Notes: generated by a model from the sequence alone, not told the origin. Positions 18,277-37,557 are shown, counted from the stretch's first letter. The stretch is DNA of 64,000 nucleotides from an uncultured delta proteobacterium (GCA_963843145.1 CAWJJC010000002.1:96001-160000); one strand, 5' to 3'. Made by a program: numbers and translations.

Positions 18277-18699
18277 ATGATCGCCATCGACTTGAAATGT
18301 TCTCAAGACCACTGCTTTGAGGGCTGGTTTGCCGGTCTTGAGGTCTTTTATCAGCAGCAGAAGGACGGGGAAATTCAATGCCCCATTTGTGACGACCATC
18401 AAATTTCCCGGATCCTCTCCCCGGTAGCCATTCGCCGGCATGGGGCTGCGCCGCCCCAAACCGTTCCGGAAGCTAAGCCGGGAGCCGCTCTGACCAAGCA
18501 ATGGCAGGAGCTGAAAACGTACCTCCAAGAGCATTTCGAGGAGGTGGGAACGGATTTTGCCAAAGAAGCGTTGAAAATGCACTACGGGGCCACGGAAAAA
18601 CGAAATATCAAGGGATCCTCCACGGCCCAGGAGGAAGAAGTCCTTCAAAAAGAAGGGGTAGAATTCTTCAAAATCCCGATGCTCAAAGAAGGGAACTGA
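18277..18699 (+). CDS. DUF1178 family protein
   Basis: MI..DLKC...H.FEGWF, CPIC, EVG.DFAKEALKMHYG. Confidence 0.9.
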   Translation: MIAIDLKCSQDHCFEGWFAGLEVFYQQQKDGEIQCPICDDHQISRILSPVAIRRHGAAPPQTVPEAKPGAALTKQWQELKTYLQEHFEEVGTDFAKEALKMHYGATEKRNIKGSSTAQEEEVLQKEGVEFFKIPMLKEGN

Positions 18700-18879
18700 C
18701 CTTTATCTTTGCATAAAAATTTGGCGAAAGGCATGGATAAATTTATTTTTACCCTTCGGGAAAGCCGGGGAGGCCTCATCTCCTTTGTTCTCCAGGGCTT
18801 GCAGTATAAGGTATACCACTTCGCCCTGGACGCCTCGGATCTGCGGCCTCCGCGACTTTTGCAAAAATAAGGTCCGCGG

Positions 18880-19569
18880 ATGGCCCTTAGCCGGCCGAAG
18901 CAAATTCAAATTTCCCTGGCGGCCAATTTGGCCTACGGCCTCTGTAAACTCTGGTTTTCCACCTGCCGCGTTAAAATTCTCCAGCCGGAAATCCATCAAC
19001 AATGGGCGTTAGGACCTCGGCCCTACATCGGCGCCACCTGGCACCGAGGGGCCATCTTCTATTGCTATTACTACGGCCCGCAGCATCACCAGGTCATGTT
19101 CAGCCAGAGCGAGGATGGAGAATATTTGGCCCGCTTCGCCCAAAAATGCGGCATGATACCGGTGCGGGGCTCTTCCACCCGGGGCGGGGAGCGGGCGCTG
19201 GTCCAAATGATCCGGCACCTGCGCCAGGGTCGGGGGCACTGCGCCACGGTCCTGGATGGGCCCCAGGGGCCGCGCTTCGTCGCCAAAAAAGGGTTGCTGG
19301 TCCTGGCCAAAAATACCGGGGCCCCGCTTCTGCCGGGTAACTGGTCCGCTTCCCGGGCCATCACCCTGGAAAGAACCTGGGACCGGACCATGGTCCCGGC
19401 CCCTTTCAGCCGGATCGCCATCGCCTACGGAGAGCCCCTGTTCATCCCCCGGGATTGCTCCGAGGATGATCTGGAGGGTTTCCGTCTGGAACTCGAAACC
19501 CGTATGAATAATGCGATGCGGGAAGCGGATGATCATTGCGGGTACAGGACCCGCTGGCTGAATTCTTAG
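18880..19569 (+). CDS. DUF374 / lysophospholipid acyltransferase family protein
   Basis: WH, S.SEDGE, RGSSTRGG, DGPQGP, WDR..VP.PF. Confidence 0.88.
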   Translation: MALSRPKQIQISLAANLAYGLCKLWFSTCRVKILQPEIHQQWALGPRPYIGATWHRGAIFYCYYYGPQHHQVMFSQSEDGEYLARFAQKCGMIPVRGSSTRGGERALVQMIRHLRQGRGHCATVLDGPQGPRFVAKKGLLVLAKNTGAPLLPGNWSASRAITLERTWDRTMVPAPFSRIAIAYGEPLFIPRDCSEDDLEGFRLELETRMNNAMREADDHCGYRTRWLNS

Positions 19570-19894
19570 GGTTGCGTTTAGGGCTGTCTCCACCATTCCT
19601 GGGAACCGTGATTTATTATCGCCGCCATTTTCAACCGAGGGATATCATCACCCGTGTTGAAACTTGCTTCCTGTAATCGTTTAAGTTGCCAATTCATAGA
19701 AATGAAAGAGTACAAACGCAAATCGTTGAAAGATGCCCCCCAGTAAGGGTTCCCGCCATAGCGAAAAATCTCCCTATTTATTATTCTCGAAACCTTGAAT
19801 AATGGGGGCCATTCAAAGGCCAGATCAATAAGGTAACCTGTCTTCCAGCAACGCCAATTTGGCTTAAAGGGGAGCCAGCAAATAGAGGAAATTA

Positions 19895-19930
19895 GGAAAC
19901 CCCGTTTCTCAAGCGAGAGAGGGGGTTTTT
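19895..19930 (+). terminator. Terminator-like hairpin upstream of module 1 cargo
   Basis: AAACCCCGTTTCTC-AAGC-GAGAGAGGGGGTTTTT; homologous copy at 26559. Confidence 0.7.
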
Positions 19931-20017
19931 GATTTTTCCCCTGATACAACAACGAAGGAAGCGAGTCCCTTTCTACGGAGATTCCTGGGCATTAAACAAC
20001 AAAAAAGGAGGTTCGCA

Positions 20018-20842
20018 ATGCGTAGCAGAGAACTATTGGCAGGATTCGTAATGGGCATTGTAATGGGGGTACTGTTTTCGGCGGCTGTGGTGCTGGCCGG
20101 GGGCCTGGAGCCGAGCGGAGGGCCGACTGCTGGCAGTTCGCAGATGTACACCCTGAATCAGATCTATAACCGGATCAACAACGGCACAGCCGCCACCAAG
20201 ATGACCACGTTCACGGAGCCGAGCAGCGGGCCAGCGGCCGGGACCATGCACACGTTGGATGAGATCTACAACCTGGTGGGGTTACGCGCCCCAGTTCCCA
20301 AGACCGGGCAGACCAAAACGGTGCCCTTCGCCGCCCCCTCCGGGTCCGACGGCGACCTGCAGAAGGGGGTAGCCCGGCCGAACCCTCGATTTACGGATAA
20401 CAACAACGGGACGGTGATGGACAATCTGACTGGGCTGATCTGGCTGACGAACGCCAACTGCGCCAACGCCACCAGAGACTGGCTGACCGCCTTGAGCGAT
20501 GTGGTGATGCTTAATACCGCCGGCACAATGAACGGAATAAACTGCGGCGATATCAGCAACGGCGGCAGTCATCAAATCGACTGGCGCCTGCCCAATGTCA
20601 AGGAGCTTCAGAGTCTGATCGATTATGCCTTTTACAACCCTGCTTTATCGAATACGGCCGGGACCGCGCAGTGGAAGGCGGGTGATCCGTTCACCGGCGT
20701 CCAGTCGGCTTACTACTGGTCGAGCTCTACGTACGCGGGCGATACGGGCGTCGCGTGGTACGTGGCCCTGGTCAATGGCCTTGTGGGTGGCGACGTTAAG
20801 TCGAACGCGCTCTACGTTTGGCCCGTCCGTGGTGGACAATGA
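20018..20842 (+). CDS. Exported DUF1566 (Lcl/CLec-like) domain protein, candidate DGR target
   Basis: VPKTGQT, RFTDNNNGTV.DNLTGLIW, DWRLPNVKELQSL, YWSSS, YVWPVRGG; RBS AGGAGG. Confidence 0.9.
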   Translation: MRSRELLAGFVMGIVMGVLFSAAVVLAGGLEPSGGPTAGSSQMYTLNQIYNRINNGTAATKMTTFTEPSSGPAAGTMHTLDEIYNLVGLRAPVPKTGQTKTVPFAAPSGSDGDLQKGVARPNPRFTDNNNGTVMDNLTGLIWLTNANCANATRDWLTALSDVVMLNTAGTMNGINCGDISNGGSHQIDWRLPNVKELQSLIDYAFYNPALSNTAGTAQWKAGDPFTGVQSAYYWSSSTYAGDTGVAWYVALVNGLVGGDVKSNALYVWPVRGGQ

Positions 20843-20992
20843 AGATCATTGGGGTTTTTGATTCTTTGGGTTATTTGATCTTCTATGGGGGTGCAGGGGG
20901 CTATGCCCCCGCGGAGCGGAAATTTTTGAGGTTCCGGGATGGTGTTCTCAAAAAAGTTAGCTGATCAGTATCGCAGCAAGGGAGGGATTTAG

Positions 20993-21532
20993 ATGATCTA
21001 CACAACGAAACCGATATTGGGTTTAGCATTGTTTGCGGCCGTTGTTCTGGCCCTGCTGGGTACGTACCAGACAGGTTCAGCAGCGGGAATGGACCCTGCG
21101 GCCAAATGGGCCTGGAGCACTAACGCCGGCTGGATCAATTTCAACCCGATCATCGGCGGAGATGTGGCCGTGTACGGGGATCACCTGGAAGGCTATATCT
21201 GGGCCGAGAATGTCGGCTGGATTCGATTGGGAACCCACACCGGCGGCAGCCCCTATACCTATGCCAACACCGATGCCACCAACTATGGGATCAACCGCGA
21301 TCCCACTGGCATTTTGTCCGGCTATGCCTGGGGCGCCAACGTGGGCTGGATCAACTTTGCCCCCACCGGCGGCGGGGTGACCATTGACCCCCAGACCGGA
21401 GATTTTGCCGGTTACGCTTGGGGGGAGAATATGGGCTGGATCAGTCTCAAAGGAGGTAGCGGGCCCAAAGCCTACGGGGTGGTCACCGATTTTAGCCAAA
21501 TCTTTCTGCCCCTGATCCTGAAGTCATCGTGA
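20993..21532 (+). CDS. Secreted hypothetical protein with WxxNxGWI repeats and C-terminal IFLPLILK
   Basis: Signal peptide; four AWS.NAGWI / WAENVGWI / AWGANVGWI / AWGENMGWI repeats. Confidence 0.8.
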   Translation: MIYTTKPILGLALFAAVVLALLGTYQTGSAAGMDPAAKWAWSTNAGWINFNPIIGGDVAVYGDHLEGYIWAENVGWIRLGTHTGGSPYTYANTDATNYGINRDPTGILSGYAWGANVGWINFAPTGGGVTIDPQTGDFAGYAWGENMGWISLKGGSGPKAYGVVTDFSQIFLPLILKSS

Positions 21533-21854
21533 GGATTTAGCCGTTACCATCTTTCAAACCAAACAGAGAAGCAGGCAGGGGCACAAAAGGCCCTGCTTCG
21601 TCGCACAGTTCCATGCGTAATCGTTAGATCTCGGTAGCATACCGGCAAAACATTTGTAGGTGAATTCAATGAGGCCAGAAATATTATTTAAAATTGAAGA
21701 AATTATGTATTGGTCTCTGGAGGATACTTTTCTCATTTATTGGTTTATTTTCAGGTCCCTTTTCCCGACCATCCGGCAGACTTTTTATTTGCCTTTGAAC
21801 TCTTCATAATGGGGGGACCCCCATTAACCTCCAATCCTACCAAGGAGGTACCGT

Positions 21855-22693
21855 ATGAAGACCAAAGAGGCCATTACCTTGTTCCAAACCTATCAACGGT
21901 CCAGTCATCGAAAAAGGACCCTACAGAGCTATCTGCCGATGCTCAACCAGTTCAAGGCCCTGTACGGGGAAACGGTATTTGAAAATCTTGGGTCCGATGA
22001 GGTATACCGCTTCCTGGAGAAGCCTGACCCAGGGCTTGGCCCGATCAACCCGGAGACTACGGTATGCCCAGTTAAAATCCCTTTTCAATTTTGTGATCAA
22101 CCGGTGCGATCTGGACATGAAAAACCCCTGCAATACCTCATTGCTCTCGAAAACCTTCCGGACCCCGAAACAAAGTCCCAGGAGAATTTTCGAAAAAGAG
22201 GCAATAGACGAGATCATCTACAACACCAAAAACCTCCGGGACCGGTTGATCCTGGAACTCCAGGCCGTGTGGGCTTCGGGTCGGGGAATCCTTAAAGATC
22301 AAGGTATCGGATATCTCGGAGAGGAAAATAGTCCTCCGGGAGCCGAAGTCCGGGAAGGAGGCCGAAGTGGCCTATATGCCGGAGCCTATTGCCAAGCGAT
22401 TGGAGGAATATATCCGGAACAAAAAGCTGGGGCCGGATGATCGTCTTTTTCCGGTTTCTTATTCAACGGTCAGGTCAATGATAAAAAGTCTTGGTTCCCA
22501 GCTTAAAATTTCGATCAGGCCCCATGACCTCCGGCGGCATTCAGCCACTTATGCCAGCCGGAATGGGGTCCCCCTGGAGATCGTCTCCAAGGTGATCCTG
22601 AGGCACCAGGACCTGAAGACTACCCAGGCCTATTTGGGCAAGGTGAGCGAGACGGAAGCCATCCGGTGGATGGATATCATTCACGGAAAGTAG
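21855..22693 (+). pseudogene. Tyrosine recombinase copy 1, frameshifted (+1 near 22020, -2 near 22266)
   Basis: Collinear with the intact copy at 30448; 839 vs 840 nt. Confidence 0.9.
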
Positions 22694-23276
22694 GCAGGTT
22701 AACCTTTGATTACCATTATAAATCTGGAGGTTTTGGGGGTATTTTTGGGGCGGTCTGGGAGAGGTTTTTAGGGAGACCGGGGGCTATCCGAAGAATAGCT
22801 TCCTGAAATCGTGACCTTTTTGCGATTTTAAAAATATCAGAAGAGTACAAGGCGTAATCGACGATAAATGGGTCTTGATCTTTATCGCCCTCGGAAATGG
22901 CAACAAGGCATGGGTTAAACCAAATTATTAACGGTCTCATAATTGTATTTACACGGGGTGTTCTTTTTATCTCTCGCCCGCTTGGCTCGAGTTCGCCGAG
23001 GGCGCAGAGAAAGACGAATTTCCTTTTTGAAAAATCGCGGAGACGCCGATTTTCCAAAAGAACTCACGCCTCAGGCGGGGTCTTATTCGCGGAGCGGGAG
23101 ATTTTGTCTTTGGTTGTGGCTGGGCGGCGTTAAGAAATCCTGTCAATATTATTTTGAGACCGTTAATAAGTATATTGGGCAAAGTAGGCTAAATAAAAAT
23201 TAGATATCAGCAAGAAAGGTATAATGTTCAGCCTTCCAAGCACAATAAACTTAAGTGGTTACGTTTAGGTGTATTT

Positions 23277-25136
23277 CCTAAATCCACCACCTAATTTTTG
23301 ACAGATCGATATTCCTATTTTTAAATGCTATTTTTACTGGCGGTTAAAGCCTATGGCCCCGGAGGAGGCCCTGCTTGCTCAATTATTTATAAAAAAACAA
23401 CCTCCATTAGCTCGGTGGGCACAAGAATGGGCGCATTTCATCCTTTTCCTGGAAAATTACCCTGACCATCACCAAACGAATCCTTTTAGGTTAATTGGGT
23501 GCCCAATTACCCTGAGGACACCGGATCAAGGGCCATGATCCGGCCTCTGGCCTCCAGAAGAAGATCAAACGCCGGATGTCCTTTCACCAACCGAATGATC
23601 AATTCTCGGGAACGTTCAACAATGCGCCCGGGTAGGTTAATAAACGAAAACCGAATCGCCTTCATTCGCTTGGATACCCAGGACTTCCCTAAAACCAACT
23701 GCTTCATGACGCTATTAAGGTTCAAGGCCAAAATCATGATCCAAAACCAGGCGGCATTCTCACCAAAATCACCAGAAGGTAATTGCCCTCCGGCCAAATC
23801 TCCTTTCATTACCGAATGGGCCTCCTCGGACTTCCCACAACGCTTTCGATGCCAGTCAATCAAGGCCCCCCCCATCCCAATTCATGTTCGTCACCACCCC
23901 GAAAAGCTTGTACCCTTGCCTGCCCATTTGCATCGTCGGAAAAGGTAACGACTGCTGTAATGCGGCCATCCCTGGCAGCGTCATCGACCCCATCCCCTCC
24001 CGGATGGCCAAGTACCGATACACCGGGGACTTCTTACTATAGCCCATCTTTCCGGGAACAAAACAAACCTCGGCCCATTCCTGATTCGTCTTGATCCGAT
24101 ACCCTTCCGACCTCCTTGTAAATCACCTTCCATTCTGATTCCTCTACTTCCAAAACCGCCCTCTTAAACTCCGGGGTCACATCACAGCCAATCGCAAACT
24201 CGATCCGACCAAATCGCTCCTCCTTCCCTTCTTCACAGTATCGGAGTAGCTCATGCTGATATCCCGCCGTGTCGGAACGTAATCGGACTTTCTCAACCCC
24301 TTCCGGCAGTAAAGCCAACGCCTCCTTCAATGACCCGCAATTGCTCATATCCCGCCGGAACATTCCCATCCCGAAACTCCGTATGCAAGACCATCTCCTG
24401 TTCCGCCCACCAGGTGTTCAATGGCTGGTAGGCTTTGTATCCTTTGTAGCCATATAAAGCCTCCCGCTTCGCCGTCTCCACCAAGGTCGCATCCTGATCC
24501 AGCGTCGCTACCTTTTGGGGATTCTGCTTCTGCATAAAATCAACCATTTCTCCGTTCACCTTCTCTAATCCCCTCAGAGCCTCATTCTTGACCGGTATGA
24601 ACGCCTTCCCCTCCACTCGTTTCTTCTCTTGCTCCGCATCGTGAAATAATGACAAATATCGAAAAACTGCAGAGGCGGAAGGCACCGTTCGTCTCCGTTC
24701 CTTTCGCCAACGACGCTCCGCCTCCCGTCTCTCCTGTCGTTTCATCCCTTTGTGTTCTATTCGCCTTAATACCTGACAAAATCCATCATCCCCCTCCAAC
24801 CGGCGTAAATCCTCCACACAATCCCCGCCCGCAAGATTCATCAATATCAACGAGAGTACCGTCTGGGCATCCGTCCAGCCTTGCTTCTTTAGGTGTAAAT
24901 GCCTCTCTATGCTGCCCGCCTATCCCCATCACCGAAGCTAAATCCAGATAAACCGGCAATCCCCCCAACGCCGTCATCCCCGTCTCTTTCTTCTCTTCTT
25001 CGTACTTGAATGAGAGAACTCCTTGTGTCATACTGCCTTCACCTCGTTGATGATAGTTTTTTCTTGTAAAAAAACTCTATCACCTCGTTCCATCGAGATC
25101 AACGAGGTTTTATATTTTTTTGATGGTGAATTAAGG
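23277..25136 (-). mobile_element. IS1380-family insertion sequence with frameshifted transposase (about 25031-23507)
   Basis: Imperfect TIRs CCTAAATCCACCACC / CCTTAATTCACCATC, 5-bp flanking duplication TATTT (23272-76, 25137-41); TLDQDAT, RSDTAGY, R.RCGKSEE.H, LPSGDFGENAAW. Confidence 0.9.
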
Positions 25137-25231
25137 TATTTTTGCTTTTATTGAATATGCTGAAACTTTCTGATATTATCCAGGAAACCGTTCAATGAAT
25201 TGGGCGTCGTTAACTAGAAAGGGAGTGAATC

Positions 25232-26102
25232 GTGATTCGTCAGACCATCCTTATCATCGCGTGGGTTCTCGTCAGCGCTGTCCCAGGATTGCTCGCTGCA
25301 GATTTGAACCCTCCAATTCTTCGTACTTCACAGTTCGATCAGCAATGGCTTGACACCGTCGTATCAATTGAACGACAGGTCGAAAAAAAAATGGTTCCGA
25401 TCGGTACTGGCTTCATCGTAGCGACTGCTCGTAAGCACCTACTCCTTGTCACCGCGAAGCACGTCGTTAAAGACGAAAAGGGAGGATTTCGGGGTGATCT
25501 CTTTTATCGCCTAAATCGAGCTGGCGGCTCTAGCCAACAGCTAAAGGATGCTGATCTCGTCAAAGCTGGCATAGGCGCTTGGTTCGAGTCCCCCAAAATG
25601 ATGTTGCAGTCCGCTTCTTGCCCATTGTCCAGGGCGCGTCGGTGAAAGCGATACCCCCTTGACCGCTTTATCGAACAAACACAGGTCGAGGCTGGGGCTC
25701 CGCTGGTGGCGCTTGGATTCCCAATGGGGCTACGCTCTCTGGATCATGCCTTGCCGATCGCCCGTCGGGGGATGATCGGGCCGCGCGGGCTCCAATTCGC
25801 TCCTGGCAGACCTCTTTATCTTTCCCGGAAACAGTGGCGGGCCTGTGCTGTATGTGCCAGCATTCAAGACCGGTGGGGTCTCCTTTGGCGAGGGGGTCGT
25901 TCATAACGAGATGCTCGTCGGCATTGTGTTGTCGTTCATCCCGTACCGAGATGTTGCGGTAAGCGAGCAAACTAAGCGTCCCAGGGTCGTGTTCGAAGAG
26001 AATTCGGGCTTGGCAAACCTGGTACCAGCGTGGGTCTTGAAACGGTTCATCACGACGGGATCTGTCGACTCTCTCGATCAGCAACTCGGCCTACCGAAGT
26101 AG
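25232..26102 (+). pseudogene. Secreted trypsin-like serine protease, split by frameshifts
   Basis: Signal peptide, IGTGFIV, VTAKHVV, LGFPMG and FPGNSGGPV distributed over three frames. Confidence 0.8.
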
Positions 26103-26558
26103 GTCCCCCGCCAACCAGCAAATGAACCCGATAAGCAACCACGGGGCAAGTCTCCCGATTTTATCCCAAAGTTCTTAGCCGTGGTTGCTTGCGGGTTATC
26201 CGCCCGCTACTCTAACTTTCAAACCGCAATCATTAAATTTCAGTTCAGTTCCTGATCAACATTTGTAGGTGTGTAGGTGTACAGAGAAATTATGGGGTGA
26301 GGAGGCAGTTTTTTGAGGGATATCAAGATGTTCTTCCTGAAGTCATGTTTTTGATGAATGGGCCATTTTGGAAGACTTCAAACGAAAAGTGTTGCTCGAA
26401 CTCCCACCTTGCTCTTCCCACCCAACGAAATTAAAGTCCTACTTACGAGGCAAAAAATAGTGTATACTTCTGTTCATTCTAAGTTCATAACAATCGAATA
26501 ACCCTCTTCCAGTTTTGCCACTACACTTTTAGGGAGGGCACACAGATGAGAGATTTCT

Positions 26559-26595
26559 GGAAACCCCGTTTCTCAAACGAGAGGCGGGGTTTTTT
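26559..26595 (+). terminator. Terminator-like hairpin upstream of module 3 cargo
   Basis: AAACCCCGTTTCTC-AAAC-GAGAGGCGGGGTTTTTT. Confidence 0.72.
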
Positions 26596-26610
26596 GCTGG
26601 AGGGTTTATT

Positions 26611-29600
26611 TTGATTTGTCCCAAGTGTCGAACCGACCTTCCTGAGGGGGCAAATTTCTGCCTGAAGTGTGGGCATGACCTTAAGGCAGACACTGCTGCT
26701 CCCGAACCTCACCACGCTCCTGAAGCTGAGCGCAAGCACGTTACCGTCCTGTTCTCGGATCTCACCGGTTACACGGCCCTGACGGAGAAGTTTGACCCCG
26801 AGCAGGTCAAGCAAATAACCGGACACATCTTCACCAGGGTCAAAGAGATCGTTGCCAATTACGAGGGCTTCATTGATCGATTGATGGGTGACGGGGTGCT
26901 GGCCTTTTTCGGAATCCCGAAGGCCCACGAAGACGACCCGGGCCGGGCCGTTCAGGCCGCCATCGAGATCCATGCCTTCGTCAAAGGGCTCAGTCCCCAA
27001 TACGAAAGCCGCATCGGGGTTCCCCTGTCCATGCACAGTGGGATCAATACTGGTCTGGTGGTGACGGCCGAGGTGGACCTTGAGAAAGGTTCCCAGGAGG
27101 TAACGGGGGAGGCGGTCAACCTGGCCGCGCGCCTCAGCGGTCTGGCCAAACCCGGTGAAATCCTGGCGGGTGAGGAGACGGTGCGGCGGACCAGAGGGCG
27201 GTTCGAGTTTCAGGACCTGGGGGCCAAACGGGTCAAAGGGAAGGCCGAACCGGTTATCGTATTTAGGCTGATTTCCGCCAGAGCTCAAACGCAAAGCCTG
27301 GATCGCCAAGTCTCTTCCGTCATGGTGGGTCGGGACCAGGAGTTGAACCGGCTTGAGTTGCAGGTGATGAAGTCCATCAACGGTGAAGGGTCGGTGGTGA
27401 ATATCATAGGGGAAGCGGGCATCGGGAAATCCCGCCTCATGGCCGAGCTGCGCCAGCGCGAGGTTATACAAAAAGTCATCCTCCAGGAAGGCCGGGCCAT
27501 CTCCATCGGCCGGAACCTGAGTTTTCACCCCTTCATCTATCTGTTGAAACAGTGGGCCAGGATCTCCGAAGAGGACTCGGAAGGCTGCCGCCTTCGACAA
27601 GCTGGACCGGACCATCCGGTCGATCCACCCGGAAGAGGCCGATGAAATACTGCCCTTCGTGGCCACCCTCATGAGCATGAAGCTGAAGGGGAAATACTGC
27701 TGAACGAGTCCGGGGAATCGAAGGCGAGGCCCTGGAGAAGCTGATCTTCAAAAACCTCCGCGAGTTGCTCATCCAGGGGAGCGAACAAACCCCGCTGGTC
27801 ATCGTCATGGAGGACCTGCATTGGGCCGATACAAGCTCCCTTTTACTCCTGCAATCCCTCCTCCGCCTGACCGAGAAACATCGGATTCTCTTCATCAACC
27901 TGTTCCGGCCCGGCTACTGGCAGGGAGAGGACGGGTCCATGGAAAAGATCGGCGACCTGCTGCCCAAACACTACGTGGAGCTGAAAATCCAGCCCCTGGA
28001 CCCGCAGGCCGGCGAGGCCCTCATTGCCAACCTGCTGAACATCCCGGGGCTGCCCTATTCCCTCCGACAGCAGATCATCGAACGGAGCGGCGGCAACCCC
28101 TTTTTTATCGAAGAAGTGGCCCGCTCCCTGATCGAAGACGGGGCCATCATCCGTTCCGGCGAGTCCTTTGAAGTGACTGATAAGATCACCTCGGTAGTGG
28201 TCCCCTCGACCATCAACGATGTGCTGATCGCTCGGATCGACCGCTTGGAAGAACAGACCCGGGAGTTGGTCAAAACGGCCGCGGTGATCGGACGGAGTTT
28301 CTTCGACCGGATCATCAGGGATGTGGCCGCTTCGATCGACGGGCTGGACCATCGACTGGGCTACCTCAAGGATACCCAACTGATCCGGGACCGGGTGCGG
28401 ATGGAAGAGTTGGAGTATTTCTTCAAACACGCCCTTGCCCAGGAGGCGGCCTACGAATCCACCCTCATCCAGCAGCGCAAGGGCTTGCATCTCAAGGTGG
28501 CGAAGTCTATAGAAAAGGTCTTCCAAGAGAGACTCCACGAGTTCTACGGCCTGTTGGCCTTTCACTACGGGAAAGGGGAAGACCTGGAAAAGACGGAAGA
28601 ATACATGGCCAAGGCCGGGGAGGAAGCCCTGTGGGCGTCCGCCTCCAGTGAGGCCCTGCACTACTACCAGGAGGCTTTGAGACTCTATGTGAACAAACAG
28701 GGCCAGGCCGCCGACCCGGAAAAGCTGGCCCAGTACGAGAAAAACATTGCCATTGCCCTGGCCAGTAAAGGGCAGCTTGTCGAATCCGTCAAATACTTCG
28801 AAAAGGTGCTGGACCGCTGGGGGGCGCCACTGCCAAAAAAAGGCCTGGCCGCTATGGTTAGACTCATCGGTGATTTTTTGGTTATTATCAAGGCGCTCTA
28901 TATTGGTCAGCACCGAACCAGGAAGGCGCTTAACGAAAGGGAAAACGAAATATTAGAGTGCTCCTGGAGAGTCGCCACAGCGCTCAGCTATTTCGATGTT
29001 TTCCAGTATATGAAGGTTTCCATGGGCACTATGAAGAGACACATTAGAACCGGCATTTCAACCCTGCCTAATGGATGGAACGCTTGGGTGGCAATATCCG
29101 GGGCTTTTTTATGGCTTTCCTTTAAGCTCAGTAACCGGATGCTGGAGATCTCACAACGGCTTGGGAAGGCGGTAGATATCGGAGGCCGAATTCATTTTGC
29201 TTGCTGGAGCACTTTTAACCAGCACTGTCAGGGAACCTGGGACCAGATCAAGGAGATGGATAGAGATTTATTGGATTCTTCGCTTGGAATTGGAGAATTC
29301 TATAACTATGGAACCTATTTGTGGTCTTATGGCGTGGTTAAAGGGGAACAGGGGGAGTTTAAGGAGGTGCTGCAGATAATTGAAACTTTATTCAATAGCT
29401 GGTCAGTCCTATGACAAAAGCGAAATTACGTTAAATGCCATAGGCCTGAAAATAGATTTTTTGGTCCGGAAGAGGGTGGCCTATGATTTCCTGTATGGAA
29501 GCTGATCAGTTTTTTCTATATGCCCGCGAAAAAGGGACCGAACTCCATGAGCTTGGGGGGCATGGCATTCAAGGCTGAATCCCAGATACTACTCAGCGAT

Positions 29601-30164
29601 TGGGACGGGGCCAACGAATCGCTGTCACAAGCCAAGGCGATTTATGATAGGCAGAAGCGGATCATCCCTGTTGCCGCTGCCCCTTATCTTGCGGCACATC
29701 TATTGTTTAATATCCATCGCTTGGAACAGGCTGTCCTTTCGGGGGATTCCTCGAACCTGGCTCCTATCCGCAAGCAGGCCTATCAGTCCGGCCAAGCAGC
29801 GGTCCGAAATTCACGCAAATACGCCCCTTACCGGACCAAGATCTTCAGACTGATGGGGCGCTACTACTGGCTGGTCGGCAAGCAGCGCCAGGCGCTTAAG
29901 TGGTGGGCGCGGACCATCCGGGAAGGCGAACGACTCGGGGCACGCCCCGATCTGGCCCGCACCTATTTTGAGGTGGGCAAATCCCTGATAGAACCTCAAA
30001 GCAACTACCGGGAACTCAACGGCCTCAGCGCCCAAGAATATCTGGACAAGGCCGAGAAGCTGTTCCGGGAGATGGACCTCCAATGGGACTTGGAGCAACT
30101 GGAACGGGTGGGCAGTGCGTGGTTAGACTTCGAGTCCGGCAGCAAACAGATTCTTGCACGCTGA
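26611..30164 (+). pseudogene. Zinc ribbon + class III adenylate/guanylate cyclase + AAA ATPase + TPR protein, split into several frames
   Basis: CPKC..CLKCG; VLFSDLTGYT, MGDGVLAFFG, GEAVNLAARL; GEAGIGKS, MEDLHWAD, GNPFFIEE, FKHALAQEAAY. Confidence 0.88.
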
Positions 30165-30447
30165 AAAAGAATTGCGATTAATGAACCCTTAAGGATGATG
30201 AACATTTTTAACCGTAATCGTTGAATCTTGTGTTCGGTAAAAAACAACAGTTGTAGGTGCATTCAACGAAACCTTAAATATAAAGTAAAATTAGTTATTT
30301 AAGAAAATGACCTTTGAGGGATTCCCGTTTTTTAGGTTATATTTGCCGGGTCATTTTCAGACCATACCTCAGCCTTTTTATTTGCCTTTGAAATCCTCAT
30401 AATGGGGGGACCCCCATTAACCTCCAACCCCACCGAGGAGGTGCCGT

Positions 30448-31287
30448 ATGAAGACCAAAGAGGCTATTACCTTGTTCCAAACCTATCAGCGGTCCAGTCA
30501 CCGGAAAAGGACCCTTCAGAGCTATCTGCCGATGCTCAACCAGTTCAAGGCCCTGTACGGGGATACGGTATTCGAAAATCTCGGGTCTGATGAGGTATAC
30601 CGCTTCCTGGAGAGCCTGACCCAGGGTTTGGCCCGATCAACCCGTAGACTCCGGTATGCCCAGCTCAAGTCCCTTTTCAATTTTGTCATCAACCGGTGCG
30701 ACCTGGACATGAAAAACCCCTGCAACACCTCGCTGCTCTCCAAGACCTTCCGGACCCCGAAACAGAGCCCCAGGAGAATTTTCGAAAAAGAGGCGATCCA
30801 TGAGATTATCTACAACACCAAAAACCTCCGAGACCGGTTGATCCTGGAACTCCAGGCTCGCTGTGGGCTTCGGGTCGGGGAGTCTTTAAAGATCAAGGTA
30901 TCGGATATCTCGGAGAGGAAAATAGTCCTCCGGGAGCCGAAGTCCGGGAAAGATGCCGAGGTGGCCTATATGCCGGAGCCGATTGCCAAGCGTTTGGAGG
31001 AATATGTCCGAACCCAAAAACTGGGGCCGGATGATCGTCTTTTCCCGGTTTCTTATTCAACGGTCAGGTCATTGATCAAAAGCCTTGGGTCCCAGCTTAA
31101 AATTTCGATCAGGCCCCATGACCTCCGGCGGCATTCGGCCACTTATGCCAGTCGAAATGGGGTCCCCTTGGAGATTGTCTCCAAGGTCATTTTGAGGCAC
31201 CAGGACTTGAAGACCACCCAGGCCTATTTGGGCAGGGTGAGCGAGACGGAAGCCATCCGGTGGATGGACATCATTCACGGGAAGTAG
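30448..31287 (+). CDS. Tyrosine recombinase copy 2, intact, 279 aa
   Basis: Catalytic set GLRVGE, KSGK, PHDLRRH, LRHQDLKTTQAY; RBS GGAGGT. Confidence 0.95.
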   Translation: MKTKEAITLFQTYQRSSHRKRTLQSYLPMLNQFKALYGDTVFENLGSDEVYRFLESLTQGLARSTRRLRYAQLKSLFNFVINRCDLDMKNPCNTSLLSKTFRTPKQSPRRIFEKEAIHEIIYNTKNLRDRLILELQARCGLRVGESLKIKVSDISERKIVLREPKSGKDAEVAYMPEPIAKRLEEYVRTQKLGPDDRLFPVSYSTVRSLIKSLGSQLKISIRPHDLRRHSATYASRNGVPLEIVSKVILRHQDLKTTQAYLGRVSETEAIRWMDIIHGK

Positions 31288-31547
31288 GCAGGTTAACCTG
31301 TTGATTACCATTATAAATATGGAGGTTTTGGGGGTGTTTTTGAGGCGGCCTGGTGGAGGTTTTTAGGGAGACCGGGGGCTATCCGAAGAATAGCTTCCTG
31401 TAGTTTTGTTTTAGAATTATGGCCTGACCTGCCAGATTTCAAACGAAAATTATTAGTCATCACCCAAATAGACACGGTGAAGGTATCCCCAGCTTTTTTC
31501 CACGAGCCTATCCCTACCAGGATCAATAAAATACTCTTTTTGCCTTA

Positions 31548-31576
31548 TTGACATTGAGTCTTTCCCGATCAATAAT
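31548..31576 (+). promoter_or_regulatory. Putative sigma70 promoter inside module 4
   Basis: TTGACA-17nt-AATAAT. Confidence 0.55.
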
Positions 31577-31669
31577 TCATTAATATTATGAAGATACTAA
31601 TATTTCCAGGTTAGGGGTCCTGCTGTAAGTTTGAATAAACCACTATTGAGCGATGGAGGCCTGTCAGCG

Positions 31670-33270
31670 ATGAAATTCATTCGAATCCTGATCCTCGGGA
31701 TTGTTAGCCTATTTCCAGCTTTTATAATAGTTCCTTCATCTCAAGCGGTCGATGCCGTGGTCGGGGGGGCCTGTACGGATACAGAATTCAATACGGCTTT
31801 GAACACCGTTCAAAGCACGGGAGGCGGAACGATTACCTTCAACTGCGGCACGTCGCCGGTCATCATTACCGTAACCGGGGCCAAGCCCATCAGCAGCCAA
31901 ACGACCATTGACGGTGGATCCCTGATCACTCTCAGCGGCGCGAATGCCTCTCGGGTTTTCTTGGTGAATCCGGGCATATCGCTAACGTTAAATAACCTGA
32001 CCGTCACCAAGGGTTTGAGCAGTAGCGATGACGGCGGTGCGATTCGTAACGAGGGTACACTGAACATTAATAACTGTAAATTCATCAACAACCAAACCGG
32101 CTCGGCGTGGAGCGGCGGAGCCATCGTCAGTTATGGACCGCTGAATATTGCCGATAGCGAATTCGCGAACAACTCGGCCGGGAACGGTGGCGCGCTTTAC
32201 CCTCGCTACGCGCCTGCCGTAACCACCATTACCCGCAGTACTTTTCACGACAACGTGGCTATAAACACGACCGACGGCTGGGGCGGGGCGATCCTGGCCT
32301 GGGATGGCGCGCCGGTGACGATTGAGGGCAGCGACATCTTCAACAACAGTAGTGCTAATTTTGGGGGGGTATCTACATCTCCCCCAATTCGTCGGTCACT
32401 TTCAACGGAAGCACGCTTCACGACAACACGGCCGGATTCACCGGCGGTGGTGTCTACAACAACAACGGCACGGCGACCCTGACCAACGTCACTCTCAGCG
32501 GCAACTCGACCAGTCTGGGCAGCGGCGGCGGAATCGGCAACAATAATAACGGCACGGCGACCCTGACCAACGTCACCCTCAGCGGCAACTCGGTCTCTTT
32601 TGGCGGGGGCGGATTTTCCAACTTAAACAACGGCACGGCGACCCTGACCAACGTCACCCTCAGCGGCAACTCGGCCGGATACGCCGGCGGTGGTGTCTAC
32701 AACAACAACGGCACGGCGACCCTGACCAACGTCACTCTCAGCGGCAACTCGGTCTCTTATCACGGCGGCGGATTCTACAACATAGACGGCACGGCGACCC
32801 TGACCAACGTCACCCTCAGCGGCAACTCGGCCCCTTATGGCGGCGGTATCTACCAAATCGGTTCCCTCAGTGGCCAGATCGTGAAGCTGAAGAATTCCAT
32901 CGTAGCCAACAGCCCTGAGGGTGGAAACTGTTTTCAAAGTCCAAGCAGTTCGACCAACATCACATCAAGCGGTTTCAATCTTTCCAGCGACAACTCCTGC
33001 ACGTCATATTTCACTCAAGCCGGCGATCAAAATAACAAACCCGCGCAGCTCGGTCCTTTGGCGAACAACGGCGGATTTACGCTGACGCATCTGCCGCTGC
33101 CCCCCATCGCAGGAGGCACGGGTCCGATTGATAATGGCTCTTGCCTGGTCGGGTCATTTGACCAACGCGGCGTGATGCGCCCTCAAGGATTGGCATGCGA
33201 TATCGGCGCGGTGGAGTACCGCCAGGGGGAGCTAACACCGTGGTTGTACCTGCCGCTGATCGAGAGATAG
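31670..33270 (+). CDS. Secreted beta-helix repeat protein with choice-of-anchor-Q-like domain; one frameshift at the G run near 32365
   Basis: Signal peptide, GGAI repeats, LGPLANNGGFTLTH, DQRGVMRPQG.ACDIGAVE, tail WLYLPLIER. Confidence 0.82.
32440..32850 (+). repeat. Five intragenic tandem repeats, period about 78-84 nt
   Basis: Near-identical ACGGCACGGCGACCCTGACCAACGTCACYCTCAGCGGCAACTCG (GTATLTNVTLSGNS). Confidence 0.92.
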
Positions 33271-33916
33271 AAATCCGTTTTTTCTTAGAACATGAAGAAA
33301 ATATTCCGAGTCCCCCCAAGGGGTACCAATTTGAATCCTGTCCCGTGTTTTACCGCTGATTAGCCGGTTTGGCTGAACACCTTCAATCGGTAATCCTTTA
33401 TTCCTCAAGCTTATGGTGTTCAACAGTAGTAGGTGACATCCTCAAGCCCAGGGGAAGAAGCCGATTTTCAAGTAATATTGGGGGCTTCTTCCTGTAGTCT
33501 TGTTTTTGAATTTTGGCAATCCCTGCAAAATTGTGGCGGTAATCCTTAATGAGACGGTGGGAGATTTAACTTCCCGCAGGACTTCGCCTCAATCGGAATT
33601 CACCCTTAAGGTCTCGGATCTGCAACCTCCTCGGTTCAGGCAATGTTTTTGGAGATCCGCTACTTGGAAAAAATAAAAAAATACAGCCTTTCTCATCGTA
33701 TAATACCTTGTTTACCCTATTCTTTTTTTAATTTCAAAATCATATTTCTTTAATAGAATGACAGAAAGGTGAAATCTGCCAATTTTTAGGGGATAGCCTC
33801 GGCCCTAGCCTCCTTCCTGGAGACAAAATTAAGAGGTCGTTTCCAATTATTTGCACTTTGCATTCCAGTTGATTTTTATCTGGCAGGGTATGAATTGAAC
33901 GGAGGAAGGGGAAAAG

Positions 33917-35544
33917 ATGAACATAAAAAAAGCAGATTCTTGCTGTTATTTTTAACTATTGGATTGATCATGGTCACGCTTTGGTCCGCCCATTCCCTCC
34001 AGGCCGCTACCAACATCAAATTGAGCGGCGTCATGCCGTCTTTCGGGGATGTTGATTCTTTCGGGATCAGTCCGGACGGCCGATATGCCGTATATTTGGC
34101 GGACCAAGACACCGACGGAGTTTTCGAGCTTTACAGCGTCCGCTTGGGGGGAGGGCCTCCAACTCGACTCAATCCCCTTCTCCCGTCTGGTAGAGGGGTA
34201 TATTCGTACCGGATAAGTCCGGATAGCGGTCGGGTGGTCTATTTGGCCAACCAAGAGACAGCTTCTGCCTTCGAGTTGTTCAGCGTCCCGATTGGAGGCC
34301 CGGCAGCCGCCGGGGTCAAGCTCAACGGGGCACTGGTGTCTGGCGGAAATGTTTCTAATAATTTCCAGCTTAGTCCGGATAGCAACCGAGTGGTGTATGT
34401 AGCCGACCAGGAGTAGGTAACGTTAACCAACTTTACAGCGTCCCGATTGGAGGCCCGGCGGCGGACGGTGTCAAGCTCAACGGGACTTTAGTCCTTAATG
34501 GGAATGTAACTGGGTTTAGGATCAGCCCCGACAGCCGCCGGGTGGTTTATCTATCCGATCGGGACACCGCCGGGGTTGTCGAGATGTACAGCGTCCCGAT
34601 CGGGGGACCAGCGATGGCCGGGGTAAAACTTAGCGTTCCCCTGGTTTCTCCCGGGAATATTAATGGATTTTTCTTTATCAGCTCGGACAGTAGTCGAGTG
34701 GTTTATGATGCCCAACCGACGGCTACTGTCTCTGAGCTGTACAGCGTCCCAATCTGGAGGTCCGGCGGCGGCCGGTGTCAGGCTCAACGACCCTCTGGGT
34801 TCCGGTAAGAATATTTTTGATTTTCGGATCAGCCCGGACAGTAGCCGAGTGGTTTATATCTCCGATCAACAGACGGCTACTGTTCTTGAGCTATACAGCG
34901 TCCCAATCGGAGGTCCGGCGGCGGCCAGGATTAAGCTAAATGGGGCCTTGGCCCTCAACGGGAATGTCACCGCTATTCAGATCAGCCCGGACAGCCGTCG
35001 GGTGGTTTATAACGCCGACCAGCAAACCGATCAAGTCTTTGAGTTGTACAGCGTTCCCATCACGGGTCCAGCGGCAGCCGGGGTCAAGCTCAACGGTCCC
35101 CTATCACCCGGCGGGGTCGTGGTGGCCGGATCAGCCCGGATAGCGGTCAGGTGGTTTATTACGCCACCCAACTTACGGATAATGTCCCTGGGCTTTACAG
35201 TGTCCCCATCACGGGTCCGGCGGCGAATGCGGTCAAAATCACACCCCCCCTGGTCCAGGTCAATGGGGGATGGTGGGAAATCAGTCCGGAGGGAAGCCGG
35301 GTGGTTTATATCGGGAACCAACAGATGACGACTGTCTCTGAGTTGTACAGCACCCCCGTAGGGACCGGCGGCGGCCGGGGTCAAGCTTAACGGTCCTTTA
35401 ACCCTCAATGGGAATGTTACCATCTTCGAGATTAGTCCGGACAACGGACGGGTTCTCTATGTCGCTGATCAGGATACCGACGAGGTATTTGAGCTCTATA
35501 TGACTTCCAATTATTTGATCTATTTGCCCCTGATTTTGAAGTAG
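33917..35544 (+). pseudogene. Secreted repeat protein (TolB/WD40-like beta-propeller), several frameshifts and a stop
   Basis: About 10 repeats ISPDS.RVVY.ADQ....ELYSVPIGGPAAAGVKLNG; tail IYLPLILK*. Confidence 0.82.
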
Positions 35545-36033
35545 GGCTAATGGGGATTCAAGTCTTTCTCTGCCCTCTCCAAGGGGAAAAATTGCAATCG
35601 GGAAAACCACTCTTCGGGAATAGGTTCTGAAGGAGGAATGCTTCCAGCAGCTTTTCTCTGTTTCCATAAAGACAAAGGCCTAGCCAAAAAATACCCAACC
35701 CCTTTTTTACTGATTTTGGTAATCCTTGAATACTAAAATCTAACGAGTCCTACATATTTGGAGGGTCTGCCGTGTAAAACATGTGACTAGTCGGTTAAAG
35801 TCCGACCATTGGAATTCGGTAGCTCGTCCACGTAGCTGGGGGGAGGGAGTCAAGGAGATCCGCTCATTAAAACAGTATAGGAGGATTAATCTCCTTCAAA
35901 ATCGGTTGAAGAGTTCAAAGGATAATTACTGATTTCTGGAATGGTCTTGGTGAAAGACTTGTAGGTGTACATCGCCACGAAACCCCTCTGGAGATGGGGT
36001 AAGGCTTACATTTTCGGAGCGAAGATATCCTCT

Positions 36034-36687
36034 TTAATCCTGCCAGCCGTGATCGCCGATCAGGCTGACGAAACGCACCCCGCCCAAATCTTCTTGAATG
36101 ACTCCCTGCTCCGTTTTGCTGAGGCGTAACAGGTTTTGGGAAAAACGGTCTCCCACCGGGATCACCAGGCGGCCTTGAGGAGCCAACTGCTGGAGATAGG
36201 CTTCCGGGACCCTGGGGGCCGCGGCGGTGACGATGATCCCGTCGAAGGGGCTTTCCTCCGGCCAGCCATAGGTGCCGTCAAAAACCTTGATCAGCACATT
36301 GTGATAGTGAAGCTGGTCCAGGATCTTTCGGGCCCTGATCACCAGGGGACGGACCCGTTCGATGGAATAGACCTTTTTGCAGGTTTCGGCCAGGACGGCG
36401 GTCTGGTAGCCTGAACCTGTCCCGATTTCCAGGATGTTTTCCTGACCGGTGAGCCCTAAGGATTGGGTCATGAGGGCCACGATATAGGGCTGAGAGATGG
36501 TCTGATGTTCACCGATCGGCAGGGGATAATCGTTGTAGGCTTCTCCCCAGAGGGCTTCTTCGATGAAGAGGTGACGGGGCACCCGGCCCATAGCCTTCAA
36601 GACCCCCGGGTCGGTAATGCCCCGGGGAAGGAGCTGTTCTTTGACCATCCGTTCCCGGGCTTTTTGAAAGTCCTGTGTCGGCTTCAT
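36034..36687 (-). CDS. pcm: Protein-L-isoaspartate O-methyltransferase
   Basis: QTISQPY, LEIGTGSGYQ, PFDGIIVTAA, GRLVIPVG, RFVSL. Confidence 0.97.
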   Translation of the reverse strand: MKPTQDFQKARERMVKEQLLPRGITDPGVLKAMGRVPRHLFIEEALWGEAYNDYPLPIGEHQTISQPYIVALMTQSLGLTGQENILEIGTGSGYQTAVLAETCKKVYSIERVRPLVIRARKILDQLHYHNVLIKVFDGTYGWPEESPFDGIIVTAAAPRVPEAYLQQLAPQGRLVIPVGDRFSQNLLRLSKTEQGVIQEDLGGVRFVSLIGDHGWQD

Positions 36688-36797
36688 TCCTCGTCTGCGG
36701 CGTTCAAACTATTTTATTTTTAAGAAGGTTTATGCTATATAAGGCTGAATAGCTAAAACTGTCAATGGGATTTTTGTTCTTCAAGGGGATATCAAAA

Positions 36798-37025
36798 ATG
36801 AATCCAAGGTTCAAACGGATCGGGAAGAAAATGGGTATTCTCCTGGCAGGGATGGCTATTTTTTTGGCGGTTACTATGTGGCTCAAGGGGATGGAGTTCA
36901 AATTCCGGGTTTTCATGGCCATCTTTGCCGGTTTGTCGGCCTGGATGGGATTAATCACCATGGTGATCTGGCTGTGGCGGGACAGCGCGGCAGAGGAAGA
37001 AAAGGAGATCCCGGAAGGAAAATAA
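36798..37025 (+). CDS. Small two-TM membrane protein
   Basis: Two hydrophobic segments, acidic tail, RBS AGGGG. Confidence 0.55.
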   Translation: MNPRFKRIGKKMGILLAGMAIFLAVTMWLKGMEFKFRVFMAIFAGLSAWMGLITMVIWLWRDSAAEEEKEIPEGK

Positions 37026-37043
37026 CTTTCTCGAGAATGCCGG

Positions 37044-37184
37044 CTACCTTATTCTTGATTTTTCTTGGACCATCTCTTTTATTTTGTTAACAAAATCAGC
37101 CAACTCCTCCTCGGACAATTGACTGCTCAAGGGCGATTCCAACAGGGATTCCATCACTTCCAGATTCGTGATTTTTTCATCCAT
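37044..37184 (-). CDS. Possible 46-aa acidic helical protein (MDEKITNLEVMESLL...)
   Basis: Open frame read by hand, protein-like composition; AAGGAG upstream but far from the ATG. Confidence 0.3.
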   Translation of the reverse strand: MDEKITNLEVMESLLESPLSSQLSEEELADFVNKIKEMVQEKSRIR

Positions 37185-37557
37185 GGCTTAATTAATTTAT
37201 CCGCTCCTTTATAGAATAGCAGCGCTCCCCCAAAATAGCTATTCTATAGTCCAGAAATTACAAAAAATCAAGCCTTCCATCCGTCAGGCCAAACATTTTT
37301 GACGCTTCGCCTATGGGAGTAGGGGCCACAGTAGGGGATAGATTGACCTGAAATTGGGTCTCCGTGGCCGACGGGTCTCGGCGAAAGGGTTTTCCAAAGG
37401 CACTCCGAACTCCGAATCCGCGCCTAAATTAATAATTCTTATTCGCCAGGTCCCGTCGGCCAGACCAGATTTTATGACGGGGTTTCATCCGGTTGATCGG
37501 GACCCAGAGCTTTTTTTAGTCGATAGACAAAATCGGAGATCCAGCTAATTCTATCTC

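Follow-up and report, generated by a model that had tools for sequence, protein, structure and literature searches.

What fills the 16.3 kb of DNA that separate two housekeeping genes, DUF374 and pcm, in the genome of an uncultured delta proteobacterium, and how did its parts come together? We analyzed this insert within a stretch of 64,000 nucleotides (hereafter the window), which lies on contig C2 of the 5.3-Mb genome under study, G000; C numbers denote contigs of G000, and G001 to G003 are genomes of the same genus. An earlier note on the window, made from the sequence alone, had described an integron-analogous cassette array served by a tyrosine recombinase other than IntI. The chances seem to us about even that the insert consists of five stacked gene cassettes, all from one widespread, double-ended family, that are exchanged at their 7-nt termini. 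The family itself is non-random and reaches far beyond this one locus; with its associated Xer-like recombinase it is apparently undescribed, as the earlier note had supposed, since full-text literature searches turned up no description of it.

The insert parses into five modules, two recombinase units, and two short spacers, the units and spacers standing between modules and all parts being laid out on the + strand: module 1 (19667-21662), recombinase unit 1 (21663-22798), module 2 (22799-26279), a gene-free spacer of 53 nt (26280-26332), module 3 (26333-30259), recombinase unit 2 (30260-31393), module 4 (31394-33435), a second spacer of 52 nt (33436-33487), and module 5 (33488-35967). The boundaries drawn by the earlier note stand at these positions, save for one detail. 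Because TGTAGGTG occurs in tandem at 26264-26279, the right terminus of module 2 is doubled (26264-26271 and 26272-26279), and the length of the first spacer depends on which copy ends the module: counted from 26279 it is 53 nt, as claimed, and counted from 26271 it is 61 nt.

What holds these parts together is a pair of conserved ends. Modules with unrelated cargo all start with CTTCCTGWA (on the + strand at 19667, 22799, 26333, 31394, and 33488) and all close with WGTAGGTG (on the + strand, ending at 21662, 26271, 26279, 30259, 33435, and 35967), and both motifs are far above chance in the window: CTTCCTGWA has six matches against 1.18 expected, the sixth at 10425 on the - strand, and WGTAGGTG has seven against 0.90 expected, the seventh at 25436 on the - strand, counts that none of 100 shuffles reached in either case. 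Taken alone, the short motifs are not rare genome-wide, where they match 194 and 150 times; the full-length ends are specific, with nhmmer E-values to 1e-21 in the genome. The 8-9-nt motifs of the earlier note are thus the outermost parts of ends that are conserved over far greater lengths. The left end is conserved for ~75 nt and its opening 7 nt, CTTCCTG, are almost invariant in the five window ends and then in 63 from many genomes; the right end is conserved for ~60 nt and its closing 7 nt, GTAGGTG, are almost invariant in the five window ends and then in 32 from many genomes. Conservation ends abruptly at the outer edge of both 7-mers. Compared in inverted orientation, the 7-mers differ at 5 of 7 positions; by eye, a common pattern, C..C...WA.T., shows in the opening 12 nt of the left end and, read as the reverse complement, in the closing 12 nt of the right end.

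Inside the termini, both ends carry, in the same orientation, a quasi-palindrome of ~20 nt with a consensus near TTTCAAACGGTAATCGTTGA, set back ~45 nt from the left terminus and ~30 nt from the right one. It consists of two ~7-nt inverted arms flanking 6-7 nt, and its central bases are unequal between the two ends of one module. Alignment of the left ends further reveals, by eye, a conserved extended -10-like element (TGn-AACATT/AAGATT) with TT(C/G)AA(T/A) ~16 nt upstream. In a strict sigma-70 promoter scan, none of the five left ends had a site and the overall total was 8 sites vs. 13 in shuffles, and a sigma-54 promoter in the left end was rejected on a GG-to-GC spacing that is, by eye, two bases too short. 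Folding left no trace: the RNAalifold consensus of the 32 right ends contains 0 pairs, two whole junctions folded as single-stranded DNA gave z = +1.84 and -0.08 against shuffles, and an Rfam search of 17000-38000 at E ≤ 1 returned no match.

At a threshold of E < 1e-3, nhmmer with profiles built from the window ends detects 29 left ends and 22 right ends in the whole genome. They are mostly paired, left then right on the same strand and 1-8 kb apart, and we list 21 modules, ~16 of them outside the window, which are spread over at least 12 contigs, stand mostly solo, measure 1-13 kb, and have their first open reading frame (ORF) 137-430 nt after the left terminus; one short pair (C20:157232-157631, ~400 nt) lacks the left 20-mer. 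A sequence-only covariance model detects left ends in 25 of the 61 relatives searched; within the same family, 19 of the 20 other genomes have them, and per-genome counts run to at least 76. The idea of a single capture platform does not survive these searches, as the same ends bound solo modules throughout the genome and occur in tens of copies in most genomes of the family. The gaps from a right end to the next left end, measured for 20 pairs, fall into classes of 34-63 nt (4), 1056-1302 nt (10), 1719-2075 nt (3), and more than 100 kb (3). Four right-spacer-left junctions exist in the genome, all of 52-53 nt and alignable by eye, and three junctions hold a recombinase unit; judged by eye only, the 52-53-nt spacers look like recombinase units minus the gene. 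As a separate observation, about half of the right ends in G000 are followed by a loosely conserved stretch of 40-60 nt, a small hairpin-like motif and then a GAGATGRGGG-like sequence, which (at C2:131968, C28:339404, C10:88655, C8:35939, C12:9224, and C26:12818) resembles the 5' half of the spacers, and several left ends are preceded by a stretch resembling the spacers' 3' half.

To locate the joints, we compared modules that have been copied or exchanged. A module of 3.8-4.4 kb is duplicated in C26 and C20 at 98-99% identity; identity runs from CTTCCTG to GTAGGTG and the flanks are unrelated, while the copies differ by internal indels, including a ~1.27-kb segment present only in C26. The block formed by recombinase unit 2 and module 4 recurs in C20 at 96.8% identity to C2, bounded on both sides by GTAGGTG: the C20 copy begins directly after the right terminus of another module and stops at its own right terminus, and its version of module 4 (C20:540108-542153) encodes an intact 546-aa PMP-type protein. 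At one C8 site, a 6.47-kb module in G000 is replaced by a different 2.17-kb module in G002, between flanks of 96-98% identity whose similarity breaks off within 3 nt of both termini. The recombinase unit is itself bounded and exchangeable, as the earlier note had proposed: on two metagenome contigs, L131 and L132, it is present at 87-93% identity, with homology starting at the right terminus and unrelated DNA upstream in both; a different module follows it in L132, and L131 ends at the recombinase stop codon. Because the sequences of duplicated and replaced modules diverge right after GTAGGTG and right before CTTCCTG, a crossover inside the spacer, as for an integron-like circle carrying one spacer, is rejected. 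These alignments place the joints at the 7-mers, neither in the spacer nor at the internal 20-mer.

Comparison with relatives, which the earlier note had advised, reveals that the DUF374-pcm locus is strain variable, with three different intervals: the distance between the two genes is ~200 bp in G002, ~2 kb in G001, and 11.6 kb in G003, whose interval holds other modules. The G003 module beside pcm is related to module 1 only distantly. The G001 interval (L103, reverse strand, ~2180-2720) contains an antitoxin/toxin-like gene pair and an ORF resembling an outer-membrane protein, and the G002 interval (L101, 2830-3030) keeps only the 3' part of the toxin gene, both read from translations by eye.

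Each recombinase unit of the window lies between the right end of one module and the left end of the next. The two units are 91.5% identical over ~1.08 kb, and their similarity stops at the left-end motif, just where the earlier note had seen it stop. Unit 2 contains a gene for a 279-aa tyrosine recombinase (30448-31287), the sole intact one in the genome, with a -10-like CATAAT at 30398-30403 and inverted-repeat arms at 30411-30425 and 31321-31334; unit 1 contains a frameshifted pseudogene (21855-22693), recovered by tblastn as three pieces 72-99% identical to the intact copy, and a further frameshifted copy lies at C20:539161-539998. By its predicted domains and motifs, the protein is a simple Xer-like tyrosine recombinase. 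It has Pfam Phage_int_SAM_1 and Phage_integrase (1.7e-19) matches, i.e., a SAM-like core-binding domain and then a catalytic domain, and no arm-binding domain; R142, K165/K168, H224, R227, H251, and Y260 do not vary among 20 homologues and line up with motifs in the XerC-like structure 4a8e, and the closest solved structures are XerC-like and XerA. The best profile is an archaeal XerA model, which scores 117 bits against a cut-off of 220, and the protein falls below all Xer cut-offs. The integron-integrase models score far lower against their thresholds (TIGR02249, 55.4 bits with a cut-off of 265 and over residues 15-191 only; NF011946, 29.7 bits with a cut-off of 435), which agrees with the earlier verdict that the enzyme is not IntI. 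A housekeeping Xer dimer resolvase was considered and dropped in view of the three copies (two broken), the few genomes that have the gene, and the scores below the Xer cut-offs.

More than 2500 homologues are present in a protein collection covering metagenomes, nearly all of 279-293 aa, and the named sources are Syntrophales, Syntrophorhabdales, or Thermodesulfobacteriota; 383 confirmed stretches in species-representative genomes extend the range to Nitrospirota. The order right end, recombinase, left end is kept among them. A regular-expression search finds both termini at regular distances in 52 homologous loci; the left terminus, with at most one mismatch, occurs within 200 nt past the stop codon at 43 of 74 loci, and a right end lies upstream of the recombinase at 29 of 66, the loci with this order spanning recombinases 58-100% identical. 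Direct repeats flanking the unit in the 52 loci are no better than those in shuffled sequence (longest 5-9 nt vs. 6-9 nt), and insertion of the recombinase gene into a spacer with duplication of a core was rejected on this ground. An inverted repeat brackets the gene, with one arm ~39 nt ahead of the start codon, just past the -10-like box, and the other ~30 nt beyond the stop codon; it has exact arms of 9 nt or more in 108 of 144 loci compared with 3 of 144 shuffled controls, and it covaries, its sequence changing between lineages while complementarity stays. This repeat could pair the 5' and 3' ends of the mRNA or could be a protein-binding site. Two Nitrospirota loci (L067 and L068) have a perfect inverted repeat of 8 nt around the recombinase unit, with the left 7-mer and its reverse complement as the inner 7 nt, and homology between the two loci stops at that repeat; in a third (L073), CAGGAAG stands on the left and CATCCTG, with one mismatch, on the right. 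The end profiles detected no Syntrophales-type cassette ends at these three loci.

The left terminus is also used by a second mobile element. This element of ~2.1 kb encodes two tandem Xer-like tyrosine recombinases (379 and 297 aa), which are ~25% identical to the 279-aa protein, and has 10-nt inverted termini; G000 contains three copies, ~95% identical, at C10:92960-95150 (L113), C28:349690-351870 (L121), and C13:72770-74873, and further loci are L029, L050, L060, L133, L151, and L170. CTTCCTG flanks the element on both sides in all four copies with both flanks visible (C10, C28, L029, and L050), single flanks at six more loci agree, and insertion is always at the start of a left end. A 7-nt direct repeat of this kind is the signature of integration with a 7-bp overlap, and it shows that the left terminus works as a tyrosine-recombinase crossover. 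CTTCCTG is thus the duplicated 7-bp crossover of this second tyrosine-recombinase element, which is clearly a site-specific parasite of the left terminus. It occurs in 8 of the 61 relatives. One further locus (L035, 8470-8510) carries a perfect 16-nt palindrome consisting of the element's two inverted termini head to head, between TTTCCTG and the opening CTTCCTG of a left end, and has the look of an element that was gutted or of the footprint that one left.

To account for these arrangements, we propose that the breakage and rejoining of DNA would fall exactly on the two 7-nt termini, most simply through conservative site-specific recombination in which left ends pair with left and right with right, with the 279-aa recombinase as the presumed catalyst. 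Two neighboring right ends, being in direct orientation, would recombine to release a circle made of an inter-module unit and a module, which could enter any other right end, and left ends would act likewise; a circle formed from two right ends has exactly the structure seen in the C2/C20 duplicate. Through repeated events, arrays would grow in which 52-53-nt spacers or 1.13-kb recombinase units separate the cargo modules, and one exchange at each end would replace a module in place, as at the C8 site. Since the 7-mers differ at 5 of 7 positions, a left end should not recombine with a right end, which would spare modules from inversion. Given the strict orientation of the cargo and the conserved -10-like motif, the left end probably supplies expression signals as well, although the strict promoter scan did not confirm this. 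In its complete form, the proposal describes a natural two-site exchange, in which modules ready for expression move between heterospecific double-stranded sites, a Xer-like recombinase pairs like ends, and no folded single-stranded site is involved; this we offer tentatively, as a possibility that is more doubtful than the exchange of cassettes at their termini as such.

Several observations weigh against exchange by this enzyme. The recombinase, counted at E ≤ 1e-60, is found in 3 of the 61 relatives (G000, G007, and G012) and, in a phylum-wide sample of 151 genomes, in 6; of the 61, 3 have both left ends and recombinase, 22 left ends only, none the recombinase only, and 36 neither. Two nearly complete genomes in few contigs, G032 (20 contigs) and G014 (70), contain 37-61 left ends and no recombinase that we could find, and arrays with ~50-nt gaps are present in genomes where none was found. 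Ends that are well conserved without the recombinase point to a different function or enzyme. Neither site has conserved outer arms, which is unusual for the core site of a simple tyrosine recombinase, and the orientation of the cargo fits a role in expression at least as well as one in recombination. A 13-mer empty joint, formed from the left and right termini through their common TGWAG, has 0 matches in the genome, after which the outer 5 and 3 nt were dropped as a candidate target sequence. Clean empty sites were not found for solo modules on C12, C20, C25, and C28, the corresponding G001-G003 loci being rearranged or replaced. Two sparse soil read sets (0.13 and 0.07 of sampled words) yielded short pieces on 18500-37500, with no terminus joint and no circle or excision product among them, a result that favors neither side.

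How, then, are ends and recombinase related? All genomes with a recombinase at least 60% identical have left ends, one beside every copy; G086, for example, has 4 recombinase copies and 17 ends, each copy with an adjoining left end. Because left ends lie beside every recombinase copy and many genomes have ends only, the recombinase depends on the ends and not the reverse. By analogy with attC clusters that lack an integron, the mismatch is compatible with an autonomous/non-autonomous relation, for which we see roughly even prospects; it is equally compatible with a recombinase that parasitizes sites having another function or enzyme, which we hold to be a good deal less probable. That the array is served by the recombinase, as the earlier note put it, we only infer, the gene having been found in few of the relatives.

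In a different explanation, the ends are mainly host expression signals of transcription units in this family (a promoter or leader on the left and a 3' end on the right, perhaps bound by one regulator through the 20-mer), the 279-aa recombinase unit and the two-recombinase element are parasites that resemble insertion sequences (IS) and target these sequences, and module turnover is a by-product of parasites and island dynamics. We consider it rather unlikely as a whole. In its favor, ends abound where neither recombinase is found (25 genomes have them, compared with 3 of 61 for the 279-aa enzyme and 8 of 61 for the pair element), the cargo is co-oriented with its first ORF 137-430 nt past the left terminus, and the -10-like motif is conserved, by eye, in the left end, while the pair element clearly parasitizes that terminus and the Nitrospirota unit, with its perfect 8-nt inverted repeat, looks like a plain IS. 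On the other hand, the strict scan saw no sigma-70-like site in the five left ends, and conservation is sharpest in the outermost 7-mer and not in a -35/-10 box. A pure expression signal does not predict that module duplication and replacement break at the outer edges of the ends, simple insertion should have left a direct repeat around the recombinase gene region, where none is significant, and the fixed 52-53-nt spacing from right to left end goes unexplained. The same spacing, with its constant and homologous spacers, is also left unexplained by the view that the modules are non-autonomous elements resembling tyrosine transposons, whose termini would be imperfect inverted repeats, whose circles would carry a right-left joint, and which would have no conserved target. 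Such elements would fit the 12-nt pattern that the inverted ends share by eye, the exact inverted 7-mers that flank the Nitrospirota recombinase unit, and the prevalence of solo modules with unrelated flanks, including the C26/C20 duplicates, which differ on both sides; we nevertheless judge this improbable, given that the block of recombinase unit and module 4 is bounded by two right termini instead of a left and a right one, that two different modules occupy the identical C8 position in G000 and G002, which is unlikely for untargeted insertion, and that no right-left joint was seen.

A further alternative moves the crossover inward and makes the internal ~20-nt quasi-palindromes the real, dif-like crossovers for the host Xer or the 279-aa enzyme, the cargo being excised between them and the 7-mers being accessory. 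The 20-mer does look like the core of a simple tyrosine-recombinase site and is conserved in both ends, the recombinase is Xer-like, and a host enzyme would explain why ends persist without the 279-aa gene. Nonetheless, in each of the three duplications or replacements examined it is at the outer termini that identity starts or stops, the 45 nt between terminus and 20-mer differ between alleles, the central bases differ between the ends of one module, and an empty left-plus-right shell of ~125 nt was sought without success, all of which leaves this explanation slightly less probable still than the transposon-like one. Least of all do we believe in a classical integron with divergent attC sites. 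The co-oriented cassette array beside a tyrosine recombinase, from which the integron analogy of the earlier note was drawn, is its sole attraction; the integrase models stay at 55 and 30 bits against cut-offs of 265 and 435, the 32 right ends have no consensus pairing and junction folding does not surpass that of shuffled sequence, the recombinase lies inside the array in the orientation of the cargo, each cassette has two different ends, and Rfam offers no match in the region. Exchange at the 7-nt termini is the reading we retain.

The cargo consists of one to five genes per module. Module 1 encodes an Lcl_C/DUF1566 protein (20018-20842) and a secreted repeat protein that ends in an LPLI tag (20993-21532). 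Module 2 has an ORF at 25232-25645 and, on the - strand, DDE transposase fragments (23507-24850), two ORFs of which match Pfam DDE_Tnp_1_4. Module 3 encodes a zinc-ribbon/adenylate cyclase/AAA_16/TPR protein split over two ORFs (26611-27645 and 27765-29414) plus an ORF at 29520-30164. Module 4 has a frameshifted beta-helix/PMP-repeat surface protein (31631-32482 and 32881-33270), and module 5 has ORFs with PD40 beta-propeller repeats (33895-34416 and 34663-35328), apparently fragmented. The array is largely decayed, with the genes for recombinase 1, the cyclase-AAA-TPR protein, the PMP protein, and the PD40 protein split by frameshifts or stops (21855-22693, 26611-29414, 31631-33270, and 33895-35328); one low-depth soil contig has an extra G behind 32362. 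That the cassettes are discrete and co-oriented with unrelated cargo, as the earlier note had read from the window, extends to the genome: of the 59 ORFs in the 21 modules that reach 100 aa and do not overlap, 49 lie on the left-to-right strand, and among the other 10 are fragments of IS, a shadow ORF on the antisense strand, and at least one reverse gene that appears real. The cargo includes many secreted beta-helix/PMP proteins carrying a choice-of-anchor Q domain, DUF4394 proteins, and others that share a short C-terminal tag. This tag, L-Y/F-L-P-L-I-x-K/R, precedes the stop codon in the window (21502-21532 and 33240-33270) and in modules on C8, C10, C12, C20, and C26; of the 28 tag ORFs in the genome, 12 fall in the 21 modules, which make up 1.5% of the genome. 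The tag may be an unrecognized C-terminal sorting signal.

Both flanks are housekeeping genes. On the left, the DUF374 gene (18880-19569, + strand; Pfam PF04028, E 8.7e-23) has orthologues 70-97% identical in G001-G003; on the right, the ORF at 36034-36687 on the - strand, for which the label pcm, protein-L-isoaspartate O-methyltransferase, was assigned by the earlier note, has orthologues 93-97% identical in the same genomes. GC content does not differ between array and flanks. Elsewhere, a repeat of ~170 nt (L112, 10347-10517; C28:610346-610516) has many copies, 80-96% identical, on different contigs of G002 and G003, and a similar multi-copy stretch lies at L107, 9700-10030.

If this reading is right, simple tyrosine recombinases shuffle cassettes not just in integrons and in the dif modules of Acinetobacter, and a structurally different, double-ended form would exist in abundant uncultured anaerobes of sediments, peat, aquifers, and digesters. 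If the two-site exchange also proves true, it would be a third kind of gene-capture device beside these two, one whose recombinase gene rides in an exchangeable inter-module unit and which is spread over Syntrophales-like Thermodesulfobacteriota and Nitrospirota, where it would diversify surface and signaling proteins. The cargo, rich in tagged secreted beta-helix and sensor proteins, points to rapid diversification of the cell surface and of signaling in these syntrophs. With short double-stranded sites and two termini that apparently do not cross-react, a working pair of enzyme and sites would be a natural tool for cassette exchange. For the surplus of ends over recombinase genes, the candidate explanations are mobilization in trans, another enzyme, or a second function of the ends.

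Among known systems, engineered recombinase-mediated cassette exchange (RMCE; Cre/lox, Flp/FRT) uses two heterospecific sites that differ in their central bases and each recombine with their like. The likeness is one of logic only and lies in the precise replacement of whole cassettes, as at the C8 site; unlike in that artificial method, the outer site arms here are not conserved and catalysis is deduced, and a literature search turned up no natural RMCE-like system. The two-domain 279-aa protein fits the "simple YR" class of tyrosine recombinases as delimited in one survey (PMC8138268). It shares with XerA, XerC/D, XerH, and XerS the SAM-like core-binding and catalytic domains and, unlike Xer resolvases, is multi-copy, partly pseudogenized, placed between cassette ends, and found in few genomes. 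With integrons, the system has in common co-oriented cassettes of unrelated cargo beside a tyrosine recombinase without an arm-binding domain, many cassette clusters without integrase, and specialized parasites of the sites; the IntegronFinder paper reportedly found many such clusters in genomes without integrase (CALIN). Integron attC sites are imperfect palindromes that fold as single strands, with outer R''/R' boxes GTTRRRY, and the integron platform consists of attI and Pc beside a divergent intI, with cassettes inserted at attI. Here, in contrast, there is no IntI signature and no folded attC, the termini are CTTCCTG and GTAGGTG and the two ends differ, nothing is comparable to attI/Pc, the recombinase is co-oriented between cassettes, and modules of 1-13 kb with leaders of 140-430 nt stand mostly solo around the chromosome. 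The analogy with integrons thus reduces to a functional likeness at most, as attC, IntI, and attI/Pc are all lacking.

The dif modules of Acinetobacter differ from the present cassettes in their enzyme, setting, and cargo and, as far as the sequence shows, in their sites. They have 28-bp XerC-6-XerD sites used by the host XerCD; here we find two different 7-nt termini with 60-75 nt of conserved inner sequence. These termini lack the 11-6-11 layout of dif, and the 20-mer is quasi-palindromic with the breakpoints elsewhere. Unlike dif modules, this family has a dedicated Xer-like recombinase gene inside some of its inter-module units, it lies on long contigs beside housekeeping genes in uncultured Thermodesulfobacteriota and relatives rather than on Acinetobacter plasmids, and its cargo is surface and signaling proteins instead of resistance genes. 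Even so, going by parts of three papers (PMC13141974, PMC10132070, and PMC12907356), the Acinetobacter dif (pdif) modules appear to be the closest published analogue that we found, nearer than integrons. In both, modules of unrelated cargo lie between short, oppositely oriented sites, the termini here being imperfect inverted copies by eye and exact ones in the Nitrospirota relatives; neighbors share a site and two unit types alternate, here cargo with spacers or recombinase units; modules are shuffled between contexts; and, much as dif modules are targeted by insertion sequences, the left terminus of these cassettes is targeted by the two-recombinase element.

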